DNA of 64,000 bases, from the NCBI GenBank assembly GCA_001513145.1, contig LFSP01000032.1, positions 20,088 to 84,087 on the forward strand, written 5' to 3'. The DNA is from Clostridia bacterium DTU025 (lineage in GTDB: Bacteria > Bacillota > DTU025). The position numbers were made by a program, and so were the translations under genes. Below the pieces are notes generated by a model. The model saw nothing but the letters and a program-made list of their open reading frames with translations. It made no database searches and was not told the DNA's origin. Below, piece by piece: positions 1-37,333 of the stretch (positions within the stretch are counted from its first letter, which is position 1; every line of letters starts with the position of its first letter).

Positions 1-2931
1 GGCCATGGGCCTGCCAGTCCTGGCAGAGATCTGCTTCCTGGATGTCACCACGCCGGCCACGGTCACCACTTCGCCGTCCCTGTGTTGCGCAAGGTCCCTG
101 ATCTGAACGGTGGCCACCCGTCGAAGCACCTGAGCAAGGTTGGCCAGCGGATGGCCGGAGAGGTAAACACCGAGCAGCTCTTTCTCCATCTGCAGCACAT
201 GGTCCTCTCGGAACTCGGGCACGTCAGGCAAGCTGGTGACGGTTCCGCCGAACTCCGAAGGCGAGGAGAACAGGTCGAAGAACGAAGCCTGCCCCGACTG
301 GGCCGTGCGCTGCCGCGCGGCGCTGGCCTCGCACACCTGATCCATGATCGCCATGAGCTGCCGCCGGTTCCCGAAGGCGCTGAAGGCCCCCACCTGGATG
401 AGGCACTCGACGGCCTTGCGGTTCACCGCGTTCATGTCCACCCTGTAGCAGAAGTCGTCGAACGACACGAAGGGACCGCCCTTCTCGCGCTCGGCGATTA
501 TCGCGTCCACGGCGCCCACACCGACGTTCTTCACGCCCAGCAGACCGAAGCGTATTGCGTTGCCCACCACCGTGAACCCTTTCTGGCTCTGGTTGATGTC
601 AGGCGGCAGCACCTTTACGCCGTTTGCCCTACACACGTCTATGTACATCCCGACCCTGTCGGACGACCCCATCCACGACGTCAGTGTGGCGGCCATGAAC
701 TCAGGGAAGAAGTGCCGCCTCAGGTATGCCGTTCTGTATGAGATCAGGCCGTAGGCGGCGCTGTGCGACTTGTTGAACCCGTAACCGGCGAACCTCTCTA
801 TCAGGGCGAACACCTCTTGCGCGACGCGCGGATCCACGCCGCGCGCCCGCGCGCCGGCCATGAACCTGTCCTCCAGGCCCTTGATGACCTCCGGCTTCTT
901 CTTGCCCATGGCCCGCCTGAGCATGTCGGCCTCGCCCAGGCTGAACCCTGCCAGCTCGCTGGCTACCTGCATCACCTGTTCCTGATAGAGCATCACCCCG
1001 TAGGTGGGGCTCAGGATCTTCTCCAGCGCAGGATGAAGGTAGTGCACGGACTCCCTGTTGTTCTTGCCCTTCACGAAATCGCCTGTCATTATCATCGGGC
1101 CGGGACGCCCCAGGGCCACGATGGCTATGATGTCCTCGAACTTGGTGGGCTTCACCTCGCGCAGCATGTTCTGGAAGAGGCTGCTCTCCAGCTGGAACAC
1201 GCCTTCCGACTCGCCGCGGCACAGCATCGCGTATACCTCGGGATCGTCCAGAGGTATCTGGTCCATGTCAAGCTTGATGCCTCGGGTCTTCTCTATCATC
1301 TCCACGCAGTGCCCTATCACTGTGAGGGTCCTGAGCCCCAGAAAGTCCATCTTCAGGATCCCCAGTCGCTCCAGGTCATCCATGGCGTACTGGGTAGTCA
1401 CCACGCCGTCGCTGGACTTGTACAGCGGCACGTAGCTCGTGATGGTGTCCGCCGAGATTACCACGCCCGCGGCGTGCACCGAAGGGTGCCTTGGCATCCC
1501 CTCGATCGCCCTGGCCAGGTTGTAAACCTCCCTCACCTGCGCATCGGCGGCAACCTGCGACGACAGCTCTGGCGACATCTCCAGGGCCCTTTCCAGGGTC
1601 ATGTTGAGCTCGTTAGGCACCAGCTTTGCGACGCGGTCCACCTGGGCGTAGGGCATCTTGAGGACCCTGCCCACGTCCCTGATGGCCGCGCGGGCGCCCA
1701 GGGTGCCGAAGGTGATGATCTGCGCCACGCGGTCGGCCCCGTACTTCGAGGTAACGTAGTCGATGACCTCGCCCCTGCGCTCGTAGCAGAAGTCGATGTC
1801 GATGTCGGGCATGGTCACCCGCTCGGGATTGAGGAACCGCTCGAACAGCAGGCCGTACTTGAGCGGATCGATGTCAGTGATCCCTAGGCAGTACGACACC
1901 AGGCTACCTGGCGCTGATCCCCGTCCCGGGCCCACATGGATTCCGCGCCTCTTTGCGAAACTTACGAAATCCCAGACTATGAGGAAATATCCTGCATATC
2001 CCATGCGGGCAATGACGTCCAGCTCGTATTCGAGCCTCCGCTTGACCTCCTCGGCCAGCTCCGGATGGGCATCCATCTGCGGGTAACGGCGCGCCGCGCC
2101 CTCCCAGCAGAGCCTGGCCAGGTAGGACTCGCACGTCTCCCCAGGGGGAGGATCGTAATCCGGAACGTGCTTCTGGTCGAAGTCAAGCTTCACGTCGCAC
2201 ATCTCGGCGATCCTTACCGTGTTGGCGCAAGCCTCCGGGATCTCGCTGAAGGCAGAGTACATCTCCTCCGCCGACTTGAGGTAGAACTGGTCGGTGGGGA
2301 AACGCATCCTCCCCGGGTCGTCCATGCTGCACCCAGTCTGTATGCAGAGCAGCACATCGTGCGCCCGGGCATCCTCGCGCCTCAGGTAATGAACGTCGTT
2401 GGTGGCCACCAGCGGCACGCCGACGCTGCGAGCGAGATCCACCAGGAGCCGGTTCACCTCGTCCTGCACCCTCATGCCGTTGGACTGAACTTCAAGGTAG
2501 AACCGGTCGCGGCCGAAGATGTCGCGATATGTTCCGGCGGCCTCTCGGGCCCTTGCCACAGCCCTCTCCCGATCGGCCGCGCTCACCCCAAGGCACCTGG
2601 GCACCTCGCCCGAAAGGCAAGCAGACAGCGCTATGAGCCCCTCCGAGTGCTGGGCCAGGAACTCCTTGTCCACCCTGGGCTTGTAGTAGAAGCCCCTGGT
2701 GTACCCGGCGCTGGAGATCTTCATCAGGTTCTCGTAGCCTGTCTGGTCAGCCGCCAGGAGCACAAGGTGGTACGGGTCGTCGTCCAGCTTTCCCTCGCGC
2801 TGGTCCATGCTGCGCTGCGCCACGTAGATCTCGCAGCCGATTATGGGCTTCAGGCCCTCGCAAGCCAGGCTCCGGTAGAACTCCACGGCACCAAACAGGC
2901 AACCGTGGTCGGTGATGGCGCAGCTCGTCAT
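1..2931 (-). CDS. dnaE: DNA polymerase III alpha subunit (replicative DnaE). The C-terminus lies beyond the window edge. The reading frame continues upstream of the ATG at 2931 into an in-frame TAG (see findings).
   Basis: I translated the minus strand myself. From 2931 it reads MTSCAITDHGCLFGAVEFYRSLACEGLKPIIGCEIYVAQ, then the PHP, palm and fingers regions, including ...LGILKMDFLGLRTLT..., ...GYGFNKSHSAAY... and ...FERFLNPERVTMPDIDIDF.... AAGGAG lies 6 nt upstream of ATG 2931. The ORF has no stop inside the window, so the ORF track omits it. Confidence 0.9.
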   Translation of the reverse strand, partial: MTSCAITDHGCLFGAVEFYRSLACEGLKPIIGCEIYVAQRSMDQREGKLDDDPYHLVLLAADQTGYENLMKISSAGYTRGFYYKPRVDKEFLAQHSEGLIALSACLSGEVPRCLGVSAADRERAVARAREAAGTYRDIFGRDRFYLEVQSNGMRVQDEVNRLLVDLARSVGVPLVATNDVHYLRREDARAHDVLLCIQTGCSMDDPGRMRFPTDQFYLKSAEEMYSAFSEIPEACANTVRIAEMCDVKLDFDQKHVPDYDPPPGETCESYLARLCWEGAARRYPQMDAHPELAEEVKRRLEYELDVIARMGYAGYFLIVWDFVSFAKRRGIHVGPGRGSAPGSLVSYCLGITDIDPLKYGLLFERFLNPERVTMPDIDIDFCYERRGEVIDYVTSKYGADRVAQIITFGTLGARAAIRDVGRVLKMPYAQVDRVAKLVPNELNMTLERALEMSPELSSQVAADAQVREVYNLARAIEGMPRHPSVHAAGVVISADTITSYVPLYKSSDGVVTTQYAMDDLERLGILKMDFLGLRTLTVIGHCVEMIEKTRGIKLDMDQIPLDDPEVYAMLCRGESEGVFQLESSLFQNMLREVKPTKFEDIIAIVALGRPGPMIMTGDFVKGKNNRESVHYLHPALEKILSPTYGVMLYQEQVMQVASELAGFSLGEADMLRRAMGKKKPEVIKGLEDRFMAGARARGVDPRVAQEVFALIERFAGYGFNKSHSAAYGLISYRTAYLRRHFFPEFMAATLTSWMGSSDRVGMYIDVCRANGVKVLPPDINQSQKGFTVVGNAIRFGLLGVKNVGVGAVDAIIAEREKGGPFVSFDDFCYRVDMNAVNRKAVECLIQVGAFSAFGNRRQLMAIMDQVCEASAARQRTAQSGQASFFDLFSSPSEFGGTVTSLPDVPEFREDHVLQMEKELLGVYLSGHPLANLAQVLRRVATVQIRDLAQHRDGEVVTVAGVVTSRKQISARTGRPMA

Positions 2932-2985
2932 CGCTAACTCCTTGAGGCGGGAAGGCAACAACTCAGTTCTGCACGCCCCGTCCAC

Positions 2986-17439: not shown

Positions 17440-17543
17440 GCGTTGGTTTGGCCCTCACCGGCCTAGAGGAACTGCACGCTGATTGTGGAAATCTCAGAAA
17501 CAGGCACGAGCCTTGCAGGGCCAAGCGAAACAGGGGTGAGAAC

Positions 17544-20048
17544 ATGAGGGCCATGCTGCTGGGAGCGGGTGAGGGCACCCGCCTGAGGCCGATCACTGCC
17601 ACGCGTCCCAAGCCTATGATACCCATAGCGAACCGTCCGATAATGGAGCACATCCTGCTGCTGCTCAAGGAGCACGGAATCACGGAGGTCTATTCCAACC
17701 TCTATTACCTTGCAGACCAGATCGAATCCTACTTCGGAGACGGGTCTGCCTGGGGCATGTCGGTGAAGTTCAAAGTCGAGGAGAAGCTTCCGGGCACCGC
17801 CGGCGGGCTGAAGAACGCGGAGGCATTTTTCCGCGACACCTTCCTCGTGATCTCCGGAGACCTCCTCACCGACTTCAACCTCACGGAAGCCATCGAGTTT
17901 CACAAGCGTCAGGGGTCCATGGCCACGCTTCTCCTCACGAAGGTGGAGAACCCTCTGGAATACGGCGTGGTCATCACGGACCAGGACGGACGGGTGCTCA
18001 GGTTCCTCGAGAAGCCAGGCTGGTCCGAGGCATTCTCCGACACGGTGAACTCGGGCATCTTCATCCTCGAGCCTGACGTGCTGGACTACATCCCCGACGG
18101 CGTGGAGTTCGACTTCTCGAAAGACCTCTTCCCCCTGCTTCTGAGGGATGGGAAGCCGCTGTTCGGCTTCGTGGCCAACGGCTACTGGTGCGACGTGGGC
18201 AACATCGACAGCTACATCAAGGCCCAGGTGGACGCGCTGTCAGGCAAGGTGAAGCTGAACGTGCCCGGAGAGCAGGTGATGCCCGGGGTGTGGGTGGGCC
18301 GGTCCGCCAAGATAAGCAGCAGGGCCGATCTGAAGGGTCCGATGGTTCTGGGCGAGAACTGCGAGATCGCGCCGGGCGCCAGGATACGAGAGTACAGCGT
18401 CATAGGCGACAACGTTATACTCGCCCCCAACTCTTTCGTGGTGCGCTCGACGGTGTTCAGCAACTCCTATATCGGCGAGGGCTCCGTGGTTTCAGGCAGC
18501 ATCATCTGCAAGAACGTGGTGCTGAAGGAGAGCGTTCGCGTGGGCGAAGGCGCGGTGGTGAGCGACGACTCGATCCTGAACTCGTCGGTGGCGGTGAAGC
18601 CCGGCGTCAGGGTGTGGCCCGGCAAGAGCATCGACGAGGGAGTGGTGCTGTCGTCCAGCGTCGTGTGGGAGCAGCGCTTCCGTCGGGAGGTTTTCTCAGA
18701 GGGCACCATATCGGGCCTTGTCAATTTCGAGTTCACCCCCGAGTTCGCGGTGAGGCTGGGCAGCGCCATCGGCGCGACGATGAAGAAGGGCGCCAGCGTG
18801 GTGGTGAGCCGCGATCCAAGCTCCACGGCGCGCATGATGAAACGGGCGCTGGTGGCGGGGCTATCCAGCGCCGGCGTGCACGTGTGCGACCTGCAGGGCC
18901 AGCCCATGCCCATACTCTGGCACATGCTCAAGCGCGACAGCTACATCAGTGGCATCCATACGTCCATGTCGGAGTCCAGCACCGAGCGCATCGACATCCA
19001 GGTGTTGGATGGAAACGGCCTGCCGCTTTCCCGCGACGACGAGCGCAAGGTGGAAACGCTGCTGTCGCGTGAGGACCCCAGGAGGGCCAGCGCCAGCGAG
19101 GTCGGCGGCATCAGCTACTTCCCCAGGGCCGTGGATTACTACGTCGAAGACTGCATGGACCGGATCAACGTTGAGGCCGCCAAGTCCCACAGGGTCAAGG
19201 CCGTCGTAGACTGCGGCTACGGCTTCGTCGGAGGGGTGCTTCCGTCCATTCTGGTGAAGATGGGCGTGGAAGTCACCAGCCTCAACGCCATTGAGCAGCC
19301 TAGCAAGATGCCGAAGAACGATGCGGAGTTGGAGCGAGCCAAGGGCGAGCTGGGCTCCATCGTCAGAACGGTCGGCGCCGACCTGGGGATCCTCATCGAA
19401 CCACAGGGCACCCATATGCACGTGGCGGACGAGACCGGCCGAGTGCTCTCCGACCTGGAGCTGGCGTACCTTTACGCGCTGCTCCTGGTGCGGGCGAAGG
19501 GCAGGGGTTCGCGAGGAGTCACTGTGCCCAGCTTCATGCCTAAGATGCTGATAGCCGCCCTCACGGCCAACGGCGCCACGGTGTACCGAAGCAAGGTGCA
19601 GGCCCGCTCCCTGGTGGACCTGGCCAGGACCAGCAAGTCGTTGGTGTGCTGCGACCTTCACGGCGGGTTCCTCTTCCCCGAACTCCACAACGGCCTTGAT
19701 GCCATGTTCGGCGCGGCGAAGTTCACGGAGCTGGTGGCGGTGGAATCGGCTCCGCTGTCGCAGCTTGCTCAGCTGGTGCCCGAGCACAACCTCGTGGCCG
19801 ACGTGATGCCGTGTCCATGGGAGATGAAGGCCCAGGTCATGCGGGAGCTCCTCGGGAAGCTGGACGACCCCGCGGTGGACACCTTCGACGGCTATCGGCG
19901 CAACATCGACGATAGTCACTGGTACATGGTGCTTCCCGACGCGGCGCGGCCGGTGTTCAGGCTCTACGCTGAGGGCGGCAGCAGGGCACAGGCAGAGGCC
20001 ATGCTGGCGAGGGCCAGAGACGAGGTGGCGGAGGCCATCGAGGGTTAG
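17544..20048 (+). CDS. Bifunctional fusion: mannose-1-phosphate guanylyltransferase (NTP-transferase plus left-handed beta-helix) joined to phosphomannomutase/phosphoglucomutase.
   Basis: MRAMLLGAGEGTRLRPIT...GTAGGL..., hexapeptide repeats, then the PGM/PMM alpha/beta/alpha domains ...VVDCGYGFVGGVLPSIL.... I chose the start at MRAM, with GGGGTGAG upstream. Confidence 0.85.
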   Translation: MRAMLLGAGEGTRLRPITATRPKPMIPIANRPIMEHILLLLKEHGITEVYSNLYYLADQIESYFGDGSAWGMSVKFKVEEKLPGTAGGLKNAEAFFRDTFLVISGDLLTDFNLTEAIEFHKRQGSMATLLLTKVENPLEYGVVITDQDGRVLRFLEKPGWSEAFSDTVNSGIFILEPDVLDYIPDGVEFDFSKDLFPLLLRDGKPLFGFVANGYWCDVGNIDSYIKAQVDALSGKVKLNVPGEQVMPGVWVGRSAKISSRADLKGPMVLGENCEIAPGARIREYSVIGDNVILAPNSFVVRSTVFSNSYIGEGSVVSGSIICKNVVLKESVRVGEGAVVSDDSILNSSVAVKPGVRVWPGKSIDEGVVLSSSVVWEQRFRREVFSEGTISGLVNFEFTPEFAVRLGSAIGATMKKGASVVVSRDPSSTARMMKRALVAGLSSAGVHVCDLQGQPMPILWHMLKRDSYISGIHTSMSESSTERIDIQVLDGNGLPLSRDDERKVETLLSREDPRRASASEVGGISYFPRAVDYYVEDCMDRINVEAAKSHRVKAVVDCGYGFVGGVLPSILVKMGVEVTSLNAIEQPSKMPKNDAELERAKGELGSIVRTVGADLGILIEPQGTHMHVADETGRVLSDLELAYLYALLLVRAKGRGSRGVTVPSFMPKMLIAALTANGATVYRSKVQARSLVDLARTSKSLVCCDLHGGFLFPELHNGLDAMFGAAKFTELVAVESAPLSQLAQLVPEHNLVADVMPCPWEMKAQVMRELLGKLDDPAVDTFDGYRRNIDDSHWYMVLPDAARPVFRLYAEGGSRAQAEAMLARARDEVAEAIEG

Positions 20049-20119
20049 GGGCGACGCCAGCATCTCTCCCCACCACCACCTCCCACCCGCCGGCGGACAG
20101 CCTGCAACGCAACAGGCGT

Positions 20120-20153
20120 CCCCCTCCTTCATACATATGAGTGAAGGAGGGGG
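20120..20153 (+). promoter_or_regulatory. Perfect 12-bp hairpin, ccccctccttca-tacatatgag-tgaaggaggggg. Its 3' arm is the dpaA Shine-Dalgarno sequence.
   Basis: Read directly. GGAGGGGG at 20146-20153 lies 6 nt before ATG 20160. Confidence 0.5.
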
Positions 20154-20159
20154 AGCCAT

Positions 20160-21053
20160 ATGTCACATGTTCCGCGCCTTACAGGGCTCAGCCTGTGTTT
20201 CCTCGGCGGCGACCGCCGCGAGACAAAGGCCATCGAGGCGATGGTGGACCAAGGGGCCAGCGTAAGGTGCTTCGGAGTCCCTTCGGAGGGGCTCAAGTGC
20301 GAGGTCACGCTGGCAGGCTCGGCCGAGGAAGCGCTGCGCGGGGCGCACGGCCTGATCCTGCCGCTTTCGGGCACCGACGACCAAGGGAAGGTCAGGGTGT
20401 CCACGTGTCCGATACTCATCGATCACGACCTGCTGGCGACGATGGCCCGCGGGGGCGCGGTATTCTCCGGCCGGCTGAGCGATGGTGTAAGGCGGTCCTG
20501 CGATGCGCTGGGCTTGCGCGTCGTCAACACTGCCGACGACGACGAGCTGGCCATCCTCAACTCCATACCGTCAGCCGAGGGCGCCGTGCTCATGGCCATG
20601 CAGGCCACGCCCATCACCGTTCACCACAGCAACTGCCTTGTCACAGGCATGGGCAGGACCGGCATGACCCTGGTGCGCCTGCTCCTGGCCATGGGCGCCA
20701 GGGTGTGGGCCGTGGCGCGCAAGGGCCGCGACCGCGCCAGAGCCTTCGAGATGGGCGCCATCCCAGTGGACTACCCCGACCTGCCCGACTGCATCTCCCA
20801 GATGGACATGGTCTTCAACACCGTGCCGGAGCTGGTGATCACCCGCCCACTGATACTCGCGATGAAGCCTGCCGCCATCATCGTGGACCTGGCCAGTGCG
20901 CCAGGGGGCGTGGACTTCGCCGCCGCCGCCGAACGACGCATCTGGGCCCAGCTGGCCCCCGGCCTTCCCGGCAAAGTGGCTCCCGCCACCGCCGGCGCGG
21001 TACTGGCAAAGGTGTTGCCTGAGATCGTGGCGCGAGCCTTCGCCAAGGGGTGA
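20160..21053 (+). CDS. dpaA: Dipicolinate synthase subunit A (SpoVFA/DpaA).
   Basis: Collinear with B. subtilis SpoVFA as I recall it: LTGLSLCFLGGD..., ...AILNSIPSAEGAVLMAMQATPITVHHSNCLVTGMGRTGMTLVR..., ...VDLASAPGGVDF...LAPGLPGKVAPATAGAVLAKVL.... Confidence 0.85.
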   Translation: MSHVPRLTGLSLCFLGGDRRETKAIEAMVDQGASVRCFGVPSEGLKCEVTLAGSAEEALRGAHGLILPLSGTDDQGKVRVSTCPILIDHDLLATMARGGAVFSGRLSDGVRRSCDALGLRVVNTADDDELAILNSIPSAEGAVLMAMQATPITVHHSNCLVTGMGRTGMTLVRLLLAMGARVWAVARKGRDRARAFEMGAIPVDYPDLPDCISQMDMVFNTVPELVITRPLILAMKPAAIIVDLASAPGGVDFAAAAERRIWAQLAPGLPGKVAPATAGAVLAKVLPEIVARAFAKG

Positions 21054-21057
21054 TATC

Positions 21058-22329
21058 GTGATTCCCGTTGTGGCTGTGGTAGGTGGCGGTTGGGCCGGCT
21101 GCGCCGCCGCGGCAGCGGTCCAGCAGGCGGGGGCCCAGGCGGTGCTCATCGAGCGCACCGACCTGCTGCTGGGAACGGGCCTGGCCGGTGGCATCATGTT
21201 CAACAATGGCCGCCTCACCGCCGCCCGGGAGCTGCAGCTCATGGGTGGAGGCGCCCTATTCGACGCCATCGACCGCGTGACGCTTCATCGACGCGTCGAC
21301 TTTCCGGGCCATCGTCACGCCAGCCTCTACGACGTGGACCGCATCGAGCGCGCCGTCAGGTCCGCCCTGGAGTCAATGGGCGTCAGGGTGCTCACGCAGT
21401 CGCGGGCGGTGGACGTGGTGCGTAGCGGCACCCGCCTCGCGGGCGTGGTGCTGTCAGACGGCAGCAGCGTAGCTGCGGACGCCTTCGTAGACGCCACCGG
21501 CACGGCCGGGCCCCAGGCCAACTGCGGAAGGGTGAACGGCTGCTGCGTCATGTGCGTGCTGCGCTGCCCCACCTTCGGTCCGAGAGTGAGCATCTCTGCC
21601 AAGGCAGGCGTGGCGGAGATCACCGGACCGCTCTTTTCGGCGATGAGCGGGTCATGTAAGCTGATGAAGCGCTCCCTCGCCCCCTGGCTCGTGCGCCGCC
21701 TGGAGGAGCAGGCCGCCATGGTGATCCCGGTGCCCAGGTACATGGCGCGCGCCGACCGCGCGGCCCACAAGGCCTGCCAGCAGTACGCGCTGCCGGAGTT
21801 CTACGACAACATCGTGCTCCTCGACACCGGCCAGGCCAAGCTCATGGCCCCCTTCTTCCCCCTGAGCCGACTGCAGGCCATCGCCGGCTTCGAGAGCGCT
21901 GCTTTCGAGGATCCCAGGTCAGGCGGCATAGGCAACTCCATCAGGTATAACCTCATCACGCCGCACGACACCGCCCTCAAGGTGGACGGCGTCGACAACC
22001 TCTTCTGCGCCGGCGAGAAGGCAGGCCTCCTGGTGGGCCACACGGAGGCCATCTGCACTGGCACCCTGGCCGGCCACAACGCGGTGAGACACGCCCTGGG
22101 TCTGCCGCCCTTCAGACCCCCAGTCTCCACAGTGCTTGGGGATCTCCTCCATTACCTCGACGCGACCCTTCGGCCGCCCGTCGGCATGCCGCAGAAGACC
22201 ACCTTCGCCGGCGGCCCCTACTTCAGCCGCATGTACGACACCGGCCTGTATACCACGGACGAGAAGCGCATCGCCGCCCGGGTACAACAGGCCGGTTGTG
22301 AACACGTATTCAGCAGGAGGCTGGCGTAG
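21058..22329 (+). CDS. GidA/MnmG/TrmFO-family FAD-dependent protein of about 424 aa with a Cys-rich insert. It is translationally coupled to dpaA.
   Basis: GTG start 5 nt after the dpaA TGA, with AAGGGGTGA upstream. N-terminal Rossmann VVAVVGGGWAGCAAA. C-terminal ...NLFCAGEKAGLLVGHTEAICTGTLAGHNA... Gid-family FAD motif. Cysteine cluster CGRVNGCCVMCVLRC. Confidence 0.65.
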   Translation: MIPVVAVVGGGWAGCAAAAAVQQAGAQAVLIERTDLLLGTGLAGGIMFNNGRLTAARELQLMGGGALFDAIDRVTLHRRVDFPGHRHASLYDVDRIERAVRSALESMGVRVLTQSRAVDVVRSGTRLAGVVLSDGSSVAADAFVDATGTAGPQANCGRVNGCCVMCVLRCPTFGPRVSISAKAGVAEITGPLFSAMSGSCKLMKRSLAPWLVRRLEEQAAMVIPVPRYMARADRAAHKACQQYALPEFYDNIVLLDTGQAKLMAPFFPLSRLQAIAGFESAAFEDPRSGGIGNSIRYNLITPHDTALKVDGVDNLFCAGEKAGLLVGHTEAICTGTLAGHNAVRHALGLPPFRPPVSTVLGDLLHYLDATLRPPVGMPQKTTFAGGPYFSRMYDTGLYTTDEKRIAARVQQAGCEHVFSRRLA

Positions 22330-22365: not shown

Positions 22366-23223
22366 TTACCACTTTCCGCTGGCGCCTCCGCCGCCCGAGC
22401 GGCCGCCGCCGAAGCCACCGAAGCCTCCGCCCCCGCCGCCACCGGACCATCCGCCTCTGCCCCTGCCTCCCACCCTGATGGTGGGGATGTGCGTCGGGAC
22501 GTACGGCCCGCGGTAGCCTCCGCCTGACTTCGGTCCGGAACCGGGGCCGCGCGGCTTCTTCCTGGACGCGGCTATGATCACCACGGCAATTATCAGGAAG
22601 GCAATGAAGGCCGCAACCTCCGCCACGCGCTCCCTCCACTCCTCATCATCGCCGGGCCCCTGGCCTTCCCATCCCTCGAGACGGGACTGGACCATGCTGA
22701 TGGCCGCGTCTATCGCGCCTGCCACGTCAGACGCCCTCATGGACGGCACTATGGCCTCGTCTATGACGCGGCCCAGGAAGGAATCGGGAAGGTCGCCCTC
22801 GAGGCCGTATCCGGTCTCGAACCGCACCTCGCGCTGCTCCTCGGCGAAGAGAAGGAGTAGCCCGTTGTCCTTGCCGGCCTCTCCGATGCCCCAGAGCTCA
22901 AACAGCTCCACCGCGAACTCCTCGATGGTCCAGCCCTCGATGGTGTCAACCGTCACCACGGCCATCTGGACGCCAGTTCGCTGCCACAGATCCACCAGCT
23001 TGTTCTCGATGCTTTGCGCGCTGGCGCCTGACAGCATCCCTGCAAGGTCGTTCATGAGCTTCGGAGGGGCAGGCCGTGCCGGAAGCTGCACCGTGGCCGC
23101 CAGCGCCTCGGAACCCGGAAGCCAGACCAAGGCCAAGGCCAGGGCTAGAGCTAATGCCACCACCAGCGCAACCGCAGTCAGCCCCGGCCGCGGAGCCCTC
23201 ATCGTGATCAGCTTCATATCCAA
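22366..23223 (-). CDS. TPM-domain (YgcG-like) protein with a signal peptide, a C-terminal TM segment and a Gly-rich tail.
   Basis: Signal peptide, then ...GMLSGASAQSIENKLVDLWQRTGVQMAVVTVDTIEGWTIEEFAVELFELWGIG... (TPM fold), a TM helix, then a GGGGGGFGGFGGG tail. Confidence 0.75.
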   Translation of the reverse strand: MDMKLITMRAPRPGLTAVALVVALALALALALVWLPGSEALAATVQLPARPAPPKLMNDLAGMLSGASAQSIENKLVDLWQRTGVQMAVVTVDTIEGWTIEEFAVELFELWGIGEAGKDNGLLLLFAEEQREVRFETGYGLEGDLPDSFLGRVIDEAIVPSMRASDVAGAIDAAISMVQSRLEGWEGQGPGDDEEWRERVAEVAAFIAFLIIAVVIIAASRKKPRGPGSGPKSGGGYRGPYVPTHIPTIRVGGRGRGGWSGGGGGGGFGGFGGGRSGGGGASGKW

Positions 23224-23230
23224 CGCCTAC

Positions 23231-23797
23231 CTAGAACTGCACTCTGGGGGCCTCGAGGGCCGCCGGGGCAGCTTCGAACATCTGCTTGGGCTGCAGGCCT
23301 CTCATGCTCGCCACGATGGACGCAGGGAACATGCGGATCTTCACGTTGTACGCCTGGACAGCCTCATTGTACCGCCCGCGCGCCACAGCTATGCGGTTCT
23401 CGGTGCCGGAAAGCTCATACATGAGGTCGTTGAAGCTCTTGTCAGCCTTCAGCTGCGGGTAGTTCTCCACCACCACGAGGAGCCTGGAGAGGGCGCTCTC
23501 AAACTGGTTGACCGCTGCCTGGGTCTCCGCAGGGCCCTGCGCCCCTGCCAGACGAGCCCTGGCGTTGGCGATTGCCGTGAACACCTCTTCCTCGTGTGCA
23601 GCGTATCCCTTCACAGTCTCCACAAGATTGGGAACAAGGTCGTACCTGCGCTGCAGCTGGTTCTGGACCTCGGCCCAGTTCCTGTTGACGTTCTCCTCAG
23701 CCGCGATGAAGGAGTTGGACGTCCTGATGAACCAGCCTGCGCCCAGCACAATCAGCGCAAGTATCGCGATCAAGATCACCAAGCCAGTTCTCTTCAT
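23231..23797 (-). CDS. lemA: LemA-family membrane protein.
   Basis: ...NRNWAEVQNQLQRRYDLVPNLVETVKGYAAHEEEVFTAIANARA...VENYPQLKADKSFNDLMYELSGTENRIAVARGRYNEAVQAYN.... Paired with the TPM gene in the usual arrangement. Confidence 0.8.
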   Translation of the reverse strand: MKRTGLVILIAILALIVLGAGWFIRTSNSFIAAEENVNRNWAEVQNQLQRRYDLVPNLVETVKGYAAHEEEVFTAIANARARLAGAQGPAETQAAVNQFESALSRLLVVVENYPQLKADKSFNDLMYELSGTENRIAVARGRYNEAVQAYNVKIRMFPASIVASMRGLQPKQMFEAAPAALEAPRVQF

Positions 23798-24239
23798 TGG
23801 AATGCCTCCCCTCGACACTGAGCTACTATGCTGTTGAAGATTAGCACTTTACAGCCGGAATGTCCACTGATTGCTAACTGGTTTCGCTGCTCCATATGGT
23901 GCCGCGCAGACTGAAGGGTCTTCCGTTGAGGCAACACGCGGTTCGTGGTTTTCGTTACGGTTAGCCGTCTAATCAGTGACGGATTCGCCATGAGGGTGCC
24001 GCCTTTTGTGACGAAATCGATATATTGCCTTTCCACTGGAGACTGGACCTCCCGCAGCTACATTTCCCAGTCAATGGCAGGCGCTCTAGCTGGGCTTCCA
24101 GACAGGCTTCCTGCCCCTCCCCTGACGACGTCGCCGCGCAGCGGCCTTCGGCGGGCCTTTATAACGACTATGCAACATTGTATACCGCTTAGCCCTTGAA
24201 ATCGCTGCGGATGGCCCCCCTTTTAGTAACGGATCTTGA

Positions 24240-32534: not shown

Positions 32535-32563
32535 GCATGGTGGTCTCGGAGGTGAAGACGCCA

Positions 32564-33766
32564 ATGCGGTACATAGCATATCTGAACCTACCCTACCTGC
32601 AATACTGCTCCAGCGTCAAGCCGGAGCAGCGCGGCCTGCCTTTGGCGGTGCTGGAGAACAACACCGTGGTCAGCATGTCGCCGGAGCTCGCGGCTCTGGG
32701 GGTGGCTCTCCGTGCCTCCCGCAGACAGGTGAAGCACGTCTGCCCCGAAGCCATGTTCGTGCAGCACGACAAGGACGCTTCCCTGCACCTGGCCAAAGGG
32801 GCATGGGACATATGCGCCGACTACACTCCCTTAGTGGAGCCCTCCGAGGTGAACTCCGCCTTCCTCGACATCACCGGATGCGGCGACGCCCGGTCCATAG
32901 TGGCGGAGCTATCCCGAAGGTGCGCCGAAACCCTGGGTTTTACGCCACACATCTGCGTCGCCCCCACCAAACTGGTGGCCAAAGCCGGCGTTCCGCCCAT
33001 AAGCTCCGAGGAGCGCGCTGCCTGGATAAGCCCTGACGAAGTCCTCGACTTTCTGGCACCGCTTCCGGTCCAGGCCCTATGGCCGCTGAGCAAGGCAACG
33101 CTGGAACACCTCTGGCGCCTTGGCGTGAACTCCGTGGCCCAGCTCAGGGCGGTGCCAGTGGAGGAGCTCATCGACCAGCTGGGCGAGGAGGGCCTGCTTG
33201 CACATCGGCTGAGCCTTGGGATCGACCACTCTAGGGTGCAGGCGGCATACCCGGAGCCGTCCGTGAGCTGCTCGTTCCGTTTCGACCAGCCGCTGGATTC
33301 CTGGGACGACATGCTCAAATGCCTGAAAATATGCGCCGCCCAGATCAGTTCCGAGCTTGACCAGGCCCAGGCGTCGACTTCCTCCGTGGAGCTGACAGTG
33401 CAGTCCGCCGGCTACGCCGACCTGGTCAAACGCCGCGCGGCCCTGCGCTCGCCCGCCAGCTCGGCCCAGGCGCTGGAAAGCGCCTTAATCAGGGCGGCCC
33501 GAGCGGCAACCCGGGCCAGCGCAAACGCGCCGGTGATCTCGCTGCACGCGCGCGCGACGAACCTGTCTATGCCAGCCGGCCTGCAGCTACGCATGTTTTG
33601 CCCCGAACTTCAGGGGCTGGCCCCGTCCGACGATGCATGCCACGCCGACGAGCTGGCCAGGGCCATCGAAAGCATCCGCCAGCGTTTCGGCGCCAAGAGC
33701 GTGCTCACCGCCGACGCCATCGTCCGCACCAGGCGCGACAGGATGATCGCCGCGTCTCTGCTGTGA
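32564..33766 (+). CDS. imuB: ImuB-like Y-family DNA polymerase paralog (SOS mutasome subunit).
   Basis: MRYIAYLNLPYL... N-terminus of DinB/ImuB type. GGAGGTG lies 9 nt upstream. It sits directly upstream of dnaE2. The ORF-track start at 32537 lacks an RBS. Confidence 0.75.
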   Translation: MRYIAYLNLPYLQYCSSVKPEQRGLPLAVLENNTVVSMSPELAALGVALRASRRQVKHVCPEAMFVQHDKDASLHLAKGAWDICADYTPLVEPSEVNSAFLDITGCGDARSIVAELSRRCAETLGFTPHICVAPTKLVAKAGVPPISSEERAAWISPDEVLDFLAPLPVQALWPLSKATLEHLWRLGVNSVAQLRAVPVEELIDQLGEEGLLAHRLSLGIDHSRVQAAYPEPSVSCSFRFDQPLDSWDDMLKCLKICAAQISSELDQAQASTSSVELTVQSAGYADLVKRRAALRSPASSAQALESALIRAARAATRASANAPVISLHARATNLSMPAGLQLRMFCPELQGLAPSDDACHADELARAIESIRQRFGAKSVLTADAIVRTRRDRMIAASLL

Positions 33767-33841
33767 GCCGCCTAGCCGCCTGGCCACAAGCTCCTTAACC
33801 TGAAGAACCCGCAAGCGCAAGTCGGAGGTCGAAGGTACATC

Positions 33842-34093
33842 GTGAGCCGAAAGGTGGAACGTCCCATAAGGGTGGAAGAGTCCACACAGGGCCCGCAGGG
33901 CCATCCTGTCAGCTTCTACTGGTCGGGGCGCTGGAACCGCGTCGACGCCGTGATCGACTCCTGGCGCGAATGCGGCGAGTGGTGGGACGGCGCGGAGGAA
34001 CACGATTACTTTCTCGTATCGTCCGGCTCCGGATGCTATGAGCTGAGCCGTACCTGCCATGGCCAGTGGGAGCTTTCAAGGATAATCGACTAG
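33842..34093 (+). CDS. Hypothetical 83-aa protein encoded between imuB and dnaE2.
   Basis: GTG start with GGAGGTCGAAGG upstream. Sequence MSRKVERPIRVEESTQGPQGHPVSFYWSGRWNRVDAVIDSWRECGEWWDGAEEHDYFLVSSGSGCYELSRTCHGQWELSRIID. It fits neatly in the gaps, 75 nt after imuB and 18 nt before dnaE2. Confidence 0.5.
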   Translation: MSRKVERPIRVEESTQGPQGHPVSFYWSGRWNRVDAVIDSWRECGEWWDGAEEHDYFLVSSGSGCYELSRTCHGQWELSRIID

Positions 34094-34111
34094 GAGCTAG
34101 GAGCCATCGCA

Positions 34112-37100
34112 ATGAGTCCAATGAGCCTGCCCGACCTTTTCGGCGGCTTCGTGCACCTGCACGTTCATTCCCAGTATTCGTTCCTCGACGGCGCCAGTCG
34201 CTGTTCCGAGCTGGTAGCCAGGTGCGCCGAGCTGGGCATGGGCGCCATGGCCATAACGGACCACGACAACGTCAGCTGCGCCGTGGAGTTCGCGCGCGCC
34301 GCGGCCGAACACGGCATCAAGCCCATCCAAGGCGTGGAGCTCACCATGGAGGGCGGCGCGCATCTCACGCTCCTTGCGGAGAACCCTGAGGGCTACGCCA
34401 ACATCTGCAACATCCTCACCGATGCGTACATGAACTCGTCTGACCGACGTCGCCCCGAAGCCCGTGTTCATACACTTGAGCGCCACAGCAAGGGCCTGAT
34501 AGCCCTGTCAGGATGCCGCCGCGGCGCCATCCCCGCCGCCATCCTTGCCCGCCAGCACGACCGGGCCATGCAGGCAGCCGAGGCGCTGGTGAAGATCTTC
34601 GGGAAGCGCAACTTCTACATAGAGCTGCAGCACCCCATGACCCCGGGAGCCGCAGCTCTCAACTCCGCCTTGATTCACCTGGCCTCCAGCCTGGGAGTGG
34701 GGGTGGTGGCCACCAACAACGTACACTATACGCACAAGTCCGGATTCGAGCTGCACGACGTGCTCACATGCATCAGAACGCTGACGACCCTCGACGACAT
34801 CCATCCCGAACGGCACATAAACGCGGAGAACTATCTGAAATCCGCAGCCCAGATGCGGGAGCTTTTCGCGCTCGTTCCCGAGGCCGTCGTCAACACCCTG
34901 GCCATCGCCGAACGGTGCAGCCCAGGCCTGAACCTCGGCCGCAAGCTGTTCCCCAAGTACGAGCCGCCCGCAGGCGAATCCCCCGCATCGCTCTTGCGCC
35001 GCCTGACCATGCAGGGCGCCGAGGCCAGGTACGGGCGAATCACCCAGGCCGTGCGCGACAGGCTCGAGCACGAGCTCAACGTCATCATCACTCTGGGCTT
35101 TGAAGGCTACTTCCTTGCAGTTCATGACATAGCGGCATGGGCCCGCGGGCGCGGGATACGATGCGCCGGACGGGGCTCCGCAGCCGACTCGGCGGTGGTG
35201 TACTGCCTGGGCCTCACCAACGTTGACCCGATCGCCCGTGGACTGCTGTTCGAGCGATTTCTGAGCCTGGAGAGGGCTCAGAGGCCCGACATCGACATCG
35301 ACTTCCAGTCCGACCGCCGCGACGAAGTGGCCGATTACGTTTACGAGCGCTACGGCCAGGGCCATGTGGCGTCCGTATGCACCTTCAACACCTTCCTCGC
35401 CCGGTCGGCTGTGCGTGACGTGGGAAAGGCCCTGGGCATCCCCGAGCCCGAGATCGACAGGCTCGCCAAGCGTCTGCCGCACATCCCCGCCGACGGCGTG
35501 CGCGCCGCCTTCTCGCGCTATCCGGAGCTCAGGGATTCAGGCATACAGCCCCATCGTTTCGAACTTCTGCTCGACCTGGTGCACCAGATGGCCGGGCTGC
35601 CACGGCACATCGGCACGCACCTGGGAGGCCTCGTGATATCCGGCGAGCCCCTCACGTGCGTCACCCCGCTTCAGATGTCCGCCAAGGGCGTGCCCATCAC
35701 GCAGTTCGACAAGGACTCCATCGAGGAGCTGGGCCTCATCAAGCTCGACCTGCTGTCGTTGCGCACCCTCTGCGCCGTGGAACGCGCCCAGGAGCTCATA
35801 AAGGCCCCGGAGTTCAGCTACGACCGCATCCCCCACGACGACGCCGCCACCTATTCCATGCTGCAGTCCGGCGAGACCATAGGCGTCTTCCAGCTGGAAA
35901 GCCCCGCCCAGCGGGCCCTGCAGCCGCGGCTCAAGGCGGATTCCTTCGAGGACATCGTGGCCAGCGTGGCGCTGATAAGGCCGGGCCCCATCAAAGGCAA
36001 CATGGTGGAGCCCTTCGTGGCCAGGCGTCGCGGCAAGGAGGAGGTCAGCTACGTCGACCCGCGCCTCGAGCCCATCCTCAAGAAGACCTACGGCGTCGTG
36101 TTATACCAGGAGCAGGTGATCCAGATAGCCACCGCTATCGCTGGATTCAGCCCTGGAGAATCCGACAGGCTCCGCAAGGTGATGACCCACTGCCGCTCAA
36201 TGGTGGAAATGGAGGCCATAGGCCGCGACTTCGTGGCCAAGGCCATGGCAAACGGCACCGACAAGGAGACAGCCGAAACCATATTCTCCTACATCGTGGG
36301 CTACGCGGGCTACGGGTTCTGCGAGGCCCACGCGGCCGCCTTCGCCGACACGGCATACCGCACCGCCTACCTGTGCAGGCATTTCCCGGCGGAGTTCTTC
36401 GCGGCCCTCTTAAGCGCCCAGCCCATGGGCTTCTACCCGCCGCGCACCCTGATCGTGGAGGCGCGCCGACGCGGGGTAAGAGTGCTGCCGCTTGACGTCA
36501 ACGCCAGCAAGCACAGGTATACGGTGGAGAACGGGGCCATAAGGGTTGGACTAATGCAGGTGAAAGGGATATCCGCCTCCGACATACAGAGCATAGAGGA
36601 CGCCCAGGCCAGCGGCCCATTCACCTCAGCCGCCGACTTCGCCGCCCGCACCGATGTGCCCGTGGACGTCTTCGAGAACCTGGCGCTGGCAGGGGCCTTC
36701 GATTCCATCGAGCCCAACCGACGAGCCGTGGTGTGGGCTGTAAGGCGCCTTGCCAGCTCCTCCGCCGCAGCCAGGAAGCTCAGCTCAGAGGCGGAGGCCG
36801 CAGGGCAGATGCGCCTTTCCGGCCTTGAAGACGGTGCCTCCCTCAAGGCCCACGTCGCGGAGGCCTCCAGGAGCATCCGAGACTTCACCCCCATCCAGAG
36901 TTTCGCCGCCGAGACGGAGATCCTGGGATTCTGCGTGCATAAGCACGCCATGGAGTTCTACCGCTCCTCCCTGGCCAGATGGGGGGCGCTCACGGCATCG
37001 GAGATCGCCCAGGCCAAGCCGGGGCAACTGGTGAGGGCGGCCGGCCTCGTCGTGCGCCCGCACCGGCCGCCCACCAAGAGCGGCCGCACCGTGGTCTTCC

Positions 37101-37333
37101 TGTCGCTGGAAGACGAGACCGGCCTCACAGACGTGACGGTGTTCGAAAGCGAGTACCAAAAATACGGCGCCGCCATATTCGGCAGCGCGGCCTTGCTGGT
37201 GGAGGGCACGGTATGCGACAGGGGCGGAGCGGTGTCAATCACGGCAAAGAGGATCCGCCCTTTTCGGGGTCGACGAGGGCACGCGTCTCCTCGCCAACCA
37301 TCGGCCAGTACCGACCGAGAAGCATGTCGGTGA
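34112..37333 (+). CDS. dnaE2: Error-prone DNA polymerase DnaE2 (ImuC).
   Basis: Intact PHP start FVHLHVHSQYSFLDGASRCSELVARCAELGMGAMAITDHDN..., ...DIDIDF..., a C-terminal OB fold, and an operon position behind LexA-box/imuB. Confidence 0.85.
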   Translation: MSPMSLPDLFGGFVHLHVHSQYSFLDGASRCSELVARCAELGMGAMAITDHDNVSCAVEFARAAAEHGIKPIQGVELTMEGGAHLTLLAENPEGYANICNILTDAYMNSSDRRRPEARVHTLERHSKGLIALSGCRRGAIPAAILARQHDRAMQAAEALVKIFGKRNFYIELQHPMTPGAAALNSALIHLASSLGVGVVATNNVHYTHKSGFELHDVLTCIRTLTTLDDIHPERHINAENYLKSAAQMRELFALVPEAVVNTLAIAERCSPGLNLGRKLFPKYEPPAGESPASLLRRLTMQGAEARYGRITQAVRDRLEHELNVIITLGFEGYFLAVHDIAAWARGRGIRCAGRGSAADSAVVYCLGLTNVDPIARGLLFERFLSLERAQRPDIDIDFQSDRRDEVADYVYERYGQGHVASVCTFNTFLARSAVRDVGKALGIPEPEIDRLAKRLPHIPADGVRAAFSRYPELRDSGIQPHRFELLLDLVHQMAGLPRHIGTHLGGLVISGEPLTCVTPLQMSAKGVPITQFDKDSIEELGLIKLDLLSLRTLCAVERAQELIKAPEFSYDRIPHDDAATYSMLQSGETIGVFQLESPAQRALQPRLKADSFEDIVASVALIRPGPIKGNMVEPFVARRRGKEEVSYVDPRLEPILKKTYGVVLYQEQVIQIATAIAGFSPGESDRLRKVMTHCRSMVEMEAIGRDFVAKAMANGTDKETAETIFSYIVGYAGYGFCEAHAAAFADTAYRTAYLCRHFPAEFFAALLSAQPMGFYPPRTLIVEARRRGVRVLPLDVNASKHRYTVENGAIRVGLMQVKGISASDIQSIEDAQASGPFTSAADFAARTDVPVDVFENLALAGAFDSIEPNRRAVVWAVRRLASSSAAARKLSSEAEAAGQMRLSGLEDGASLKAHVAEASRSIRDFTPIQSFAAETEILGFCVHKHAMEFYRSSLARWGALTASEIAQAKPGQLVRAAGLVVRPHRPPTKSGRTVVFLSLEDETGLTDVTVFESEYQKYGAAIFGSAALLVEGTVCDRGGAVSITAKRIRPFRGRRGHASPRQPSASTDREACR

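Follow-up and report, generated by a model that had tools for sequence, protein, structure and literature searches.

In a 64-kb window of contig LFSP01000032.1 of Clostridia bacterium DTU025 (the window is the whole stretch of 64,000 nucleotides that was analysed; G+C content 63.7%) we found a dpaA gene that is followed by a flavoprotein gene other than dpaB. The dpaA gene (20160–21053, plus strand) is of the spoVFA type according to its family matches, encodes dipicolinate synthase subunit A with 297 aa, and belongs to a dpaB-less type. The gene behind it (21058–22329, plus strand), hereafter flav, encodes a 423-aa oxidoreductase that depends on flavin adenine dinucleotide (FAD) and was assigned by the Pfam families GIDA and FAD_oxidored to the GidA/MnmG/TrmFO superfamily. 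We tentatively read the two genes as a late mother-cell operon in which flav may take over the flavin role of DpaB. As a candidate for this role flav is backed by three independent kinds of genomic evidence: an operon shared with a dpaB-less dpaA, a common promoter type and a change in the DpaA protein.

Dipicolinate (DPA) is described as making up 5–15% of the spore dry weight and as the basis of wet-heat resistance (PMC5629000). Two solutions for its synthesis are recognised in the literature, DpaAB and EtfA(B). The dpaAB genes are sigmaK-dependent in Bacillus subtilis and Clostridium difficile (PMC3789822) and are missing from C. botulinum, C. sporogenes and Clostridium sensu stricto (PMC3533761). 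For C. perfringens, DPA formation dependent on EtfA/EtfAB is attributed to Orsburn et al. 2010 in the works that cite it (PMC3533761, 10.1101/2022.02.25.481979). The DPA-forming enzyme is thus settled solely for organisms with DpaAB and, with some dispute, for EtfA in C. perfringens. Cluster I Clostridium strains were reported in a preprint to make DPA without dpaAB or etfA, and Isf was proposed instead (10.1101/803486). Galperin and colleagues noted that Gottschalkia acidurici, lacking both DpaAB and EtfAB, must use "yet another, currently unidentified oxidoreductase" (10.1101/2022.02.25.481979). We found no paper linking the flav family to sporulation or DPA, and none on the flav-associated DUF6917 or on sigK together with a FAD-dependent oxidoreductase in Clostridium; the family was therefore treated as uncharacterised.

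The dpaA gene is followed by flav instead of dpaB

Against the NCBIfam model NF006162 (DpsA), a curated equivalog with a cut-off of 261 bits, the window DpaA scored 306.4 bits over residues 7–293. With the stricter TIGR02853 it reached 281.1 bits, under the cut-off of 319.65. The protein consists of the Pfam domain DpaA_N (PF16924, 67.7 bits) and a NAD(P) Rossmann domain (match to 2-Hacid_dh_C) with the motif GxGxxG. These results agree with an earlier interpretation made from the DNA letters without database searches (the sequence-only reading), which had matched the gene to SpoVFA/DpaA along its full length. All motifs that are invariant in canonical DpaA are retained (DE.AI.NSIPSAEGA, GxGRxG and APGLPGKVAP.TAG), and GMGRTG, DELAILNSIPSAEGA and APGLPGKVAPATAG were invariant when the window protein was aligned with DpaA from Thermincola, Calderihabitans and Desulforamulus.

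A canonical dpaA lies directly upstream of dpaB in a dapB...asd-dapA cluster. None of dpaB, dapB, asd or dapA was found near the window gene. The locus resembles a dpaAB operon but lacks the dpaB neighbour, which is one of its defining features. To search for dpaB we used the B. subtilis SpoVFB sequence, a valid probe because it scored 349 bits on TIGR02852, and DpaB of Thermincola potens as a second probe. Neither probe gave a match in the window or within 6–10 kb of any dpaA-flav locus, while the Thermincola control was detected. No PF02441 or electron-transfer flavoprotein (ETF) domain was present among the scanned window proteins or the precomputed gene annotations. The earlier description of dpaA as an orphan at this locus was hereby confirmed, and dpaB may also be absent from the rest of the genome, beyond the window.

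The junction of the two genes (21045–21060, plus strand) was read directly from the sequence. The Shine-Dalgarno sequence AAGGGG of flav (21045–21050) lies inside the end of dpaA, followed by the TGA stop codon (21051–21053), a gap of 4 nt and the GTG start codon at 21058, from which the flav homologues also align. The sequence-only reading had named the GTG start correctly; its distance of 5 nt and its protein length of 424 aa are corrected here to 4 nt and 423 aa. Between dpaA and flav there was no terminator-like site and no sigma-70-like promoter. The gap measures 4 nt with the same junction in locus L001, 2 nt in L082 and 26–74 nt in other loci, and the translational coupling that had been proposed for the pair therefore holds for the tight junctions (2–4 nt) of some members and not for the wider ones. 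The operon is closed by a convergent gene with a TPM domain (22366–23223, minus strand; open reading frame (ORF) and Pfam match); its opposite orientation had been noted before. It is followed by lemA (23231–23818, minus strand), which was assigned in the same way.

The gene following dpaA in other genomes and metagenomes

For comparison we collected 85 distinct dpaA loci, consisting of loci found earlier and 80 from a scan of JGI metagenomes with the DpaA alignment, after removal of duplicates. The gene after dpaA was dpaB in 61 loci, flav in 14 and apbE in one; nine loci were too short to tell. Not a single case was seen among the 85 in which dpaA was followed by any other gene. All 61 dpaB cases showed the order dapB-dpaA-dpaB-asd-(dapG)-dapA, as in Thermincola and Calderihabitans.

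DpaA homologues fell into two groups with a gap between them, the window clade at 57–100% identity to the window protein and everything else at 48% or less. Every clade locus inspected (L082/L083, L088/L089, L086/L087, L001/L002 and the metagenome loci L092–L096, L099 and L151) had the order nucleotidyltransferase/phosphomutase-dpaA-flav-(apbE), followed by the TPM and LemA genes on the other strand. This TPM/LemA pair was kept downstream throughout the window clade as well as in a sister lineage, L084. A second lineage with the dpaA-flav pair, L129/L136, has a DpaA of 44% identity and the order dacB-like Peptidase_S11-dpaA-flav-yitT. Since the two lineages differ in their flanking genes, the dpaA-flav pair has outlasted a full change of flanks. 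Near-complete genomes with the pair are GCA_028709305.1, GCA_028680845.1, GCA_024655925.1, UBA1393 (DBQN01), JBMNJT01 and UOOH01.

The DpaA proteins of the dpaB-less loci carry a signature of their own in the alignment of the 85 sequences. A deletion of two residues following GTDxxGxVR was found in 15 of 15 dpaB-less DpaA, L084 and L129/L136 included, and in none of the 61 that are linked to dpaB. It was accompanied in all 15 by the signature [ST]GTD, and the longer form was present in all 61. In the dpaB-less proteins the loop (residues ~69–84 of the window DpaA) reads P[LV][ST]GTD..G.V[RK] and then has the deletion, compared with P.xG[IV]... in the canonical ones. The sequence of DpaA thus tracks the loss of dpaB, and the loop with the deletion is a candidate for a partner-contact loop.

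In a neighbour-joining tree all dpaB-less dpaA clustered together with weak support (bootstrap 78/200), and the window clade was recovered in 199 of 200 replicates. The shared deletion is a better argument for a single origin than the bootstrap value, but there may have been two origins. The simplest history begins with the loss of the dpaB adjacency and the gain of flav in one ancestor, after which the pair changed neighbourhoods and the L084 lineage lost flav from the site.

Two observations from these loci concern other genes. In L086/L087 an apbE gene is added after flav; the one in L086 is separated by a 162-nt upstream gap in which a sigma-A-like -10 box of its own was read by eye. We ruled out ApbE as a functional partner, as it has a signal/lipoprotein N-terminus, and an SGAT-type flavinylation motif was absent from both DpaA and flav by inspection. 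By accessions, no common sample was found for the sister-lineage dpaA (P0141) and a flav gene from the ytfJ site described below (P0021/L090).

Sequence and predicted fold of flav

The motifs on which the superfamily assignment had been proposed were all found in flav: GGGWAG at residues 9–14, NLFCAGE...TLAGHNA near the C-terminus and the cysteine cluster CGRVNGCCVMCVLRC at residues 156–170 (nt 21523–21567). Pfam scores of 110.6 bits for GIDA (PF01134, threshold 22.1) and 61.5 bits for FAD_oxidored (PF12831, threshold 27) place the protein in the GidA-type superfamily. The cysteine cluster, C156-x6-C163-x2-C166-x3-C170-P171 (21523–21570, plus strand), is a putative [4Fe-4S] site. C156, C163, C166, C170 and C240 were invariant in 89 of 89 family members in all genomic contexts, and C200 and C317 were conserved in 88 of 89. 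The spacing C-x6-C-x2-C-x3-C-P ends in the manner of a ferredoxin [4Fe-4S] motif, and the four cysteines would probably bind such a cluster. In the AlphaFold2 model (mean predicted local distance difference test score, pLDDT, 83.7; predicted template modelling score, pTM, 0.89) the Cys loop, with values <50, was the sole stretch of low confidence; the model contains no cofactors.

The nearest solved folds were MnmG/GidA, with template modelling (TM) scores of 0.62–0.66 at 18% identity, followed by TrmFO; a Foldseek search gave E = 2.6e-17 for the GidA entry 3cp8. Membership in the MnmG or TrmFO family itself was ruled out by score, length and context. Against MnmG (TIGR00136) flav scored 46 bits with a cut-off of 524.85, and against TrmFO 37.6 bits (TIGR00137, cut-off 428.65) and 39 bits (NF003739, cut-off 262). 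The protein is also ~200 aa shorter than MnmG, which leaves no room for the C-terminal part of that enzyme. There was no match to the DpaB families PF02441, TIGR02852 or NF006161, whose members have ~196–200 aa compared with 423 aa, and Pfam found no ETF domain. By every test applied flav falls outside the DpaB, EtfA, MnmG and TrmFO families. Its sequence is most likely that of a dehydrogenase that acts on a small molecule and contains FAD and, probably, a [4Fe-4S] cluster.

Distribution and genomic contexts of the flav family

Among 8,000 candidates examined, 7,079 flav homologues were found at E <= 1e-3, and at least 570 relatives are encoded in species-representative genomes. Members occur in Desulfotomaculia, Sporomusa, Syntrophomonadaceae, Clostridium, Tissierellia and Lachnospiraceae, and also in Thermodesulfobacteriota (Desulfobacterales), Chloroflexi, Ignavibacteriales and archaea. 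Within Clostridium sensu stricto the C. argentinense protein is ~79–80% identical to those of C. botulinum and C. sporogenes.

We surveyed the genomic context of the best 80 species-level flav loci. In Desulfotomaculia and relatives, ytfJ (or dacB) and rluB flank a stand-alone flav. In Clostridium and Tissierellia, both described in the literature as lacking dpaAB, a 321-aa Cys-rich protein is encoded directly upstream of flav (16 of the 80 loci); it is PyrK/FNR-like by sequence inspection and has no Pfam match. This two-gene pyrK-like-flav unit sits between dacB and rluB. This ytfJ/dacB...rluB position is met repeatedly across Firmicutes and looks ancestral. In L136 dpaA lies between dacB and flav and occupies the slot that the pyrK-like gene has in Clostridium. 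In a neighbour-joining tree the dpaA-linked flav proteins grouped with the stand-alone flav of the ytfJ/rluB site, apart from the groups linked to the PyrK-like protein, to a 463-aa membrane protein and to SelA-like/B12-binding proteins.

The last of these contexts is a gene cluster that has apparently not been described. It encodes a SelA-like protein of 488 aa, a 613-aa protein with an N-terminal B12-binding domain, a P-loop-like protein of 361 aa, DUF6917, RidA and an FCD/GntR regulator, often with the 463-aa membrane protein, and was seen in L004, L012, L013, L016, L018, L028, L030, L033, L035–L038, L048, L050, L053, L058, L059 and L182. Its genes suggest a B12-dependent pathway for the breakdown of some amine or amino acid. 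Calderihabitans maritimus was considered as a case of dpaAB and flav in one genome. Both are present, but because the flav found there belongs to the metabolic SelA/B12 type, the case was set aside as uninformative for the sporulation-type sub-branch.

Promoter-like sequences upstream of dpaA and flav

Upstream of the window dpaA we found a putative sigmaK-type promoter (20112–20138, plus strand), identified by its motif and its positional conservation. A spacer of 16 nt separates its -35 AC (20112–20113) from the -10 element CATACATAT (20130–20138), which lies ~22 nt before the ATG. The string CATACANNT occurs three times in the window, both strands counted. A relaxed pattern, AC-N16/17-CATA, occurs ten times, and the dpaA copy alone is intergenic, correctly oriented and placed just upstream of a gene start. 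The CATAcAnnT box recurs in the corresponding position before the dpaA genes of L001, L002, L082, L086, L088, L094 and L099, with the surrounding sequence diverged.

As a positive control we used the dpaB-linked dpaA loci with enough upstream DNA (55 of the 61, among L091–L171). Within 130 nt upstream, 53 of these 55 contained the pattern AC-N16/17-NATAnnnTN (background rate 0.066 per 130 nt). The canonical dpaA promoter has the consensus -35 AGCACCT and -10 TCATATAATG, with sites 50–120 nt upstream, and matches in sequence the sigmaK pattern (a -35 AC and a -10 element shared with sigmaE). It is strikingly uniform across uncultured Firmicutes, and this uniformity makes it usable as a marker for sigmaK-type promoters in metagenomic contigs.

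From 32 non-redundant canonical dpaA promoter sites we built a position weight matrix (PWM) and expressed scores as percentiles against background. The sites upstream of the orthologous dpaA reached the 99th (L086), 97th (L002) and 95th (L082) percentile, and those of L001, L094 and L099 the 58th–79th. With this dpaA-trained matrix, 12 of the 26 upstream regions of flav or pyrK-like-flav that were scored reached the 97th percentile or more (Peptococcaceae, Clostridium and Tissierellia). The promoter type AC-N16/17-CATATAnTG is common to canonical dpaA and to the flav or pyrK-like-flav genes of other spore-formers. In five Desulfotomaculia-type loci (L054, L055, L062, L063 and L075) a GAATATACTG box lies ~35 nt before the flav start, with an AC 16–17 nt upstream in three of the five, and the identical GAATATACTG is the -10 element of canonical dpaA in L125, L130 and L143. 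The two genes thus seem to share a single, lineage-specific form of the mother-cell -10 element. The corresponding box upstream of flav reads CATATACTA in L005 and CATACAATA in L090.

A conserved sigmaK-like promoter sequence, GTAAC[AC]-N16/17-nATAnnnTA, lies ~60–75 nt before the pyrK-like gene of the pyrK-like-flav unit (L009, L011, L015, L016, L021, L023, L027, L029, L044, L045, L060, L071 and L080). The strict pattern was present before pyrK-like-flav in 8 of 15 loci, with a background of 0.033 per 130 nt, and most of the others were near-matches by eye. In a negative control the strict sigmaK pattern occurred directly upstream of flav in 4 of 80 loci, which equals background; in most of these loci flav is in mid-operon or belongs to a non-spore-former. 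This null result is explained by the signal preceding the first gene of the unit, which is dpaA, the pyrK-like gene or a stand-alone flav. In many spore-formers flav and dpaA may thus share one class of late mother-cell promoters, and the window dpaA may itself be sigmaK-dependent, to judge from its promoter-like sequence.

A 14-bp hairpin was predicted by folding at 20119–20154 (plus strand), with the 5' arm UCCCCCUCCUUCAU and the 3' arm GUGAAGGAGGGGGA; the latter is the dpaA Shine-Dalgarno sequence (GAAGGAGGGGG). The region 20100–20175 folded at -36.6 kcal/mol (z = -5.7 against shuffles). A bulged version is present in L001, and none was found in L002 or L082. Because the 5' arm precedes the putative -10 element, only transcripts reading through from the nucleotidyltransferase/phosphomutase gene would form the hairpin, and in such transcripts it may mask the ribosome-binding site of dpaA.

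Possible role of flav in dipicolinate synthesis

Compared with the DpaA-DpaB system (SpoVFA-SpoVFB) of B. subtilis, C. difficile and Thermincola, the window locus shares a full-length DpaA, the order of dpaA and a flavoprotein gene, and a sigmaK-type promoter-like sequence. It differs in the second gene, which encodes a 423-aa FAD/Fe-S protein of the GidA superfamily instead of a ~196–200-aa flavin mononucleotide (FMN) protein of the HFCD/PF02441 fold, in the lack of dapB, asd, dapG and dapA neighbours, and in the clade-specific deletion of two residues in DpaA. EtfA/EtfAB of C. perfringens provides a precedent for a non-orthologous flavoprotein that replaces DpaB-type chemistry in anaerobic spore-formers. 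However, organisms of that kind lack both dpaA and dpaB, whereas the window keeps dpaA and its flav has no ETF domain. The pyrK-like-flav unit of Clostridium and Tissierellia has the layout of PyrK-PyrD (class 1B dihydroorotate dehydrogenase) and of NfnAB/SudAB, a small and a large FAD/Fe-S subunit. Its large subunit is GidA-like, not PyrD- or GltD-like, and in the window it is dpaA and not a pyrK-like gene that precedes flav.

We propose that dpaA and flav form a two-gene operon, most likely transcribed late in the mother cell from a promoter of the sigmaK type. The lineage that carries it is uncultured, high in GC, probably spore-forming and a member of the Bacillota. The flav gene would come from a sub-branch whose other members, in this sample, lie in the ytfJ/dacB-rluB region of Firmicutes, a sporulation neighbourhood. 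In an ancestor of the lineage dpaA would have been separated from dapB, dpaB and asd, which otherwise invariably accompany it, and joined to flav, which would then supply the flavin redox function given by DpaB elsewhere. DpaA and flav together would convert dihydrodipicolinate, or 4-hydroxytetrahydrodipicolinate (HTPA), to dipicolinate, and the electrons would pass through FAD and the Fe-S cluster to an acceptor such as ferredoxin. In Clostridium the electron path may run from a PyrK-like subunit binding reduced nicotinamide nucleotide (NAD(P)H) through Fe-S clusters and FAD to the substrate. By analogy, the pyrK-like arrangement shows flav as what would normally be the catalytic partner of a nucleotide-binding protein. 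We infer the enzymatic role of flav in DPA synthesis from features that were observed directly, namely the gene order, the conservation of the pair, the family assignments, the invariant cysteines, the promoter-like motifs and the DpaA deletion.

Several results weigh against this proposal. To our knowledge, DpaA has no cofactor able to take single electrons from an Fe-S cluster, which makes an electron path from flav hard to place. The PWM put the window dpaA site at just the 88th percentile, and because this match is modest the conserved position is the main argument for the promoter. Apart from dpaA, no recognisable sporulation gene was found among the annotated or scanned window proteins. 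In the context survey dpaA adjoined flav in just two of the 80 loci, L001 (Firmicutes bacterium UBA1393, 80% identity) and L002 (67%). About 20 of the 80 belonged to the cluster with SelA-like, B12-binding, DUF6917, RidA and FCD-regulator genes, and about 22 had the 463-aa membrane protein within a few kb. The family moreover includes members from non-spore-formers and archaea. In the sister lineage L084 (DpaA 47% identity) the order is dpaA-apbE, with no flav nearby and the same GCHY-1/ABC-F and TPM/LemA flanks. Finally, surveys of spore-formers without dpaAB do not name Desulfotomaculia (PMC3533761, 10.1101/2022.02.25.481979), and a stand-alone flav at the sporulation site in this group implies a role of flav that is independent of DpaB loss.

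The main rival explanation, only somewhat less likely than our proposal, is that flav shares the regulon of dpaA and has a different job: it would be a late mother-cell oxidoreductase unrelated to DPA that entered the dpaA transcription unit simply through the common use of a sigmaK promoter, and a DpaB or EtfAB encoded elsewhere would work with DpaA. In Peptococcaceae and relatives, lineages reported to have dpaAB, the ytfJ-rluB site holds flav as a stand-alone gene with a dpaA-like promoter of its own; the orphan dpaA of L084 has no flav nearby, and the 26–74-nt gaps of several members speak against translational coupling being obligate. A split DpaA/DpaB pair would be unusual, however, given that the two genes are adjacent in 61 of 61 dpaB loci, and such an explanation accounts neither for the adjacency of dpaA and flav being kept despite the complete change of flanks nor for the exact coincidence of the DpaA deletion with dpaB loss. 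That flav is a vegetative catabolic dehydrogenase, oxidising an imported amine or amino-acid derivative and placed after dpaA without relevance to sporulation, we consider unlikely. About half of the 80 loci do link flav to the 463-aa membrane protein and/or to the cluster of PLP-like (pyridoxal phosphate), B12, RidA and FCD-regulator genes, and non-spore-formers have members of the family; but the window flav belongs to another sub-branch than the members in metabolic contexts, no metabolic partner genes are present in the window, and neither a promoter-like site nor a terminator separates flav from dpaA.

It is highly improbable that the pair is a relic in a non-sporulating organism, with dpaA as a leftover and its adjacency to flav due to chance. 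Both dpaA and dpaB are known from non-spore-formers (10.1101/2022.02.25.481979), which together with the missing sporulation genes would allow for a relic, but all invariant motifs of DpaA are retained throughout a clade with identities down to 57%, the promoter box upstream of dpaA is conserved and the pair is found in at least 14 distinct loci. An enzyme modifying tRNA or rRNA in the manner of MnmG or TrmFO is hardly credible, even though these are the closest folds, with the same GidA-type FAD Rossmann fold and the GxGxxG and NLFxAGE...G motifs, and rluB lies immediately downstream in many Firmicutes. The equivalog cut-offs were missed about tenfold (46 against 525 bits for MnmG, 38 against 429 for TrmFO), identity is ~18%, the C-terminal part of MnmG is missing from the shorter flav, the contexts in metabolic operons are those of a small-molecule enzyme, and rluB is merely the next gene of an old synteny block. 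We know of no Fe-S motif in MnmG or TrmFO like the invariant four-Cys motif of flav.

Replacement of DpaB by flav, as proposed by the sequence-only reading, is thus partly supported. It is strengthened by the either/or nature of the gene 3' of dpaA, by the recurrence of the pair in a second lineage, by the DpaA deletion and by the common promoter class. The co-occurrence check that had been suggested turned out unfavourably: the flav family is large and mostly unlinked to dpaA, with 78 of the 80 species-level loci lacking the adjacency and with members in non-spore-formers.

A broader version, in which flav would be the general anaerobic dipicolinate-forming oxidoreductase of spore-formers, working with DpaA in the dpaB-less lineages and, in Clostridium sensu stricto and Tissierellia, with the PyrK-like subunit for NAD(P)H, appears rather unlikely. 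If this version is true, flav would be a widespread third DPA synthase and could explain DPA in strains reported to be without dpaAB and etfA (10.1101/803486) and in G. acidurici (10.1101/2022.02.25.481979). With more than 7,000 members and high conservation in C. botulinum and C. sporogenes, the family probably represents an unrecognised late-sporulation gene, as judged from its promoters and gene contexts.

Other features of the window

The remainder of the window is of a housekeeping nature. It contains dnaE, a Peptidase_M29-like gene, mgtE, genes for an amidohydrolase, a PNP_UDP phosphorylase and an aminotransferase, TldD/PmbA pairs, an ABC-F protein and GCHY-1 (type I GTP cyclohydrolase FolE2), and further the nucleotidyltransferase/phosphomutase fusion, a BMP-type ABC transporter, an AlaX-like gene and a ribosomal-protein region. 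The fusion upstream of dpaA is a single 866-aa ORF (17448–20048, plus strand) that joins a sugar-1-phosphate nucleotidyltransferase with LbH domain to a phosphogluco/phosphomannomutase. It is kept in the clade (831–889 aa) and missing from the sister lineage L084.

For the same region we compared ENA contig L081, found by exact protein look-up, with window positions 11058–32329. The identity was 99.83%, with 22 gap openings over 21 kb at ~4x coverage. These indels break dpaA and several other genes into fragments in the gene calls of L081; they are probably assembly errors and not pseudogenisation, the window genes being intact.

The separate dnaE gene (1–2985, minus strand) runs off the window start. 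ORFs initially called at 82–2937 on the plus strand were rejected as antisense artefacts, the true gene being this minus-strand dnaE-type polymerase. A second PolIII-alpha gene (DnaE2-like) is found at 32537–37333 (plus strand) together with an IMS-family polymerase (ImuB-like) and DUF6504, in the layout of a damage-inducible mutasome. The same ImuB-like/DUF6504/DnaE2-like cassette is also present near the dpaA locus of L082, L086 and L088.

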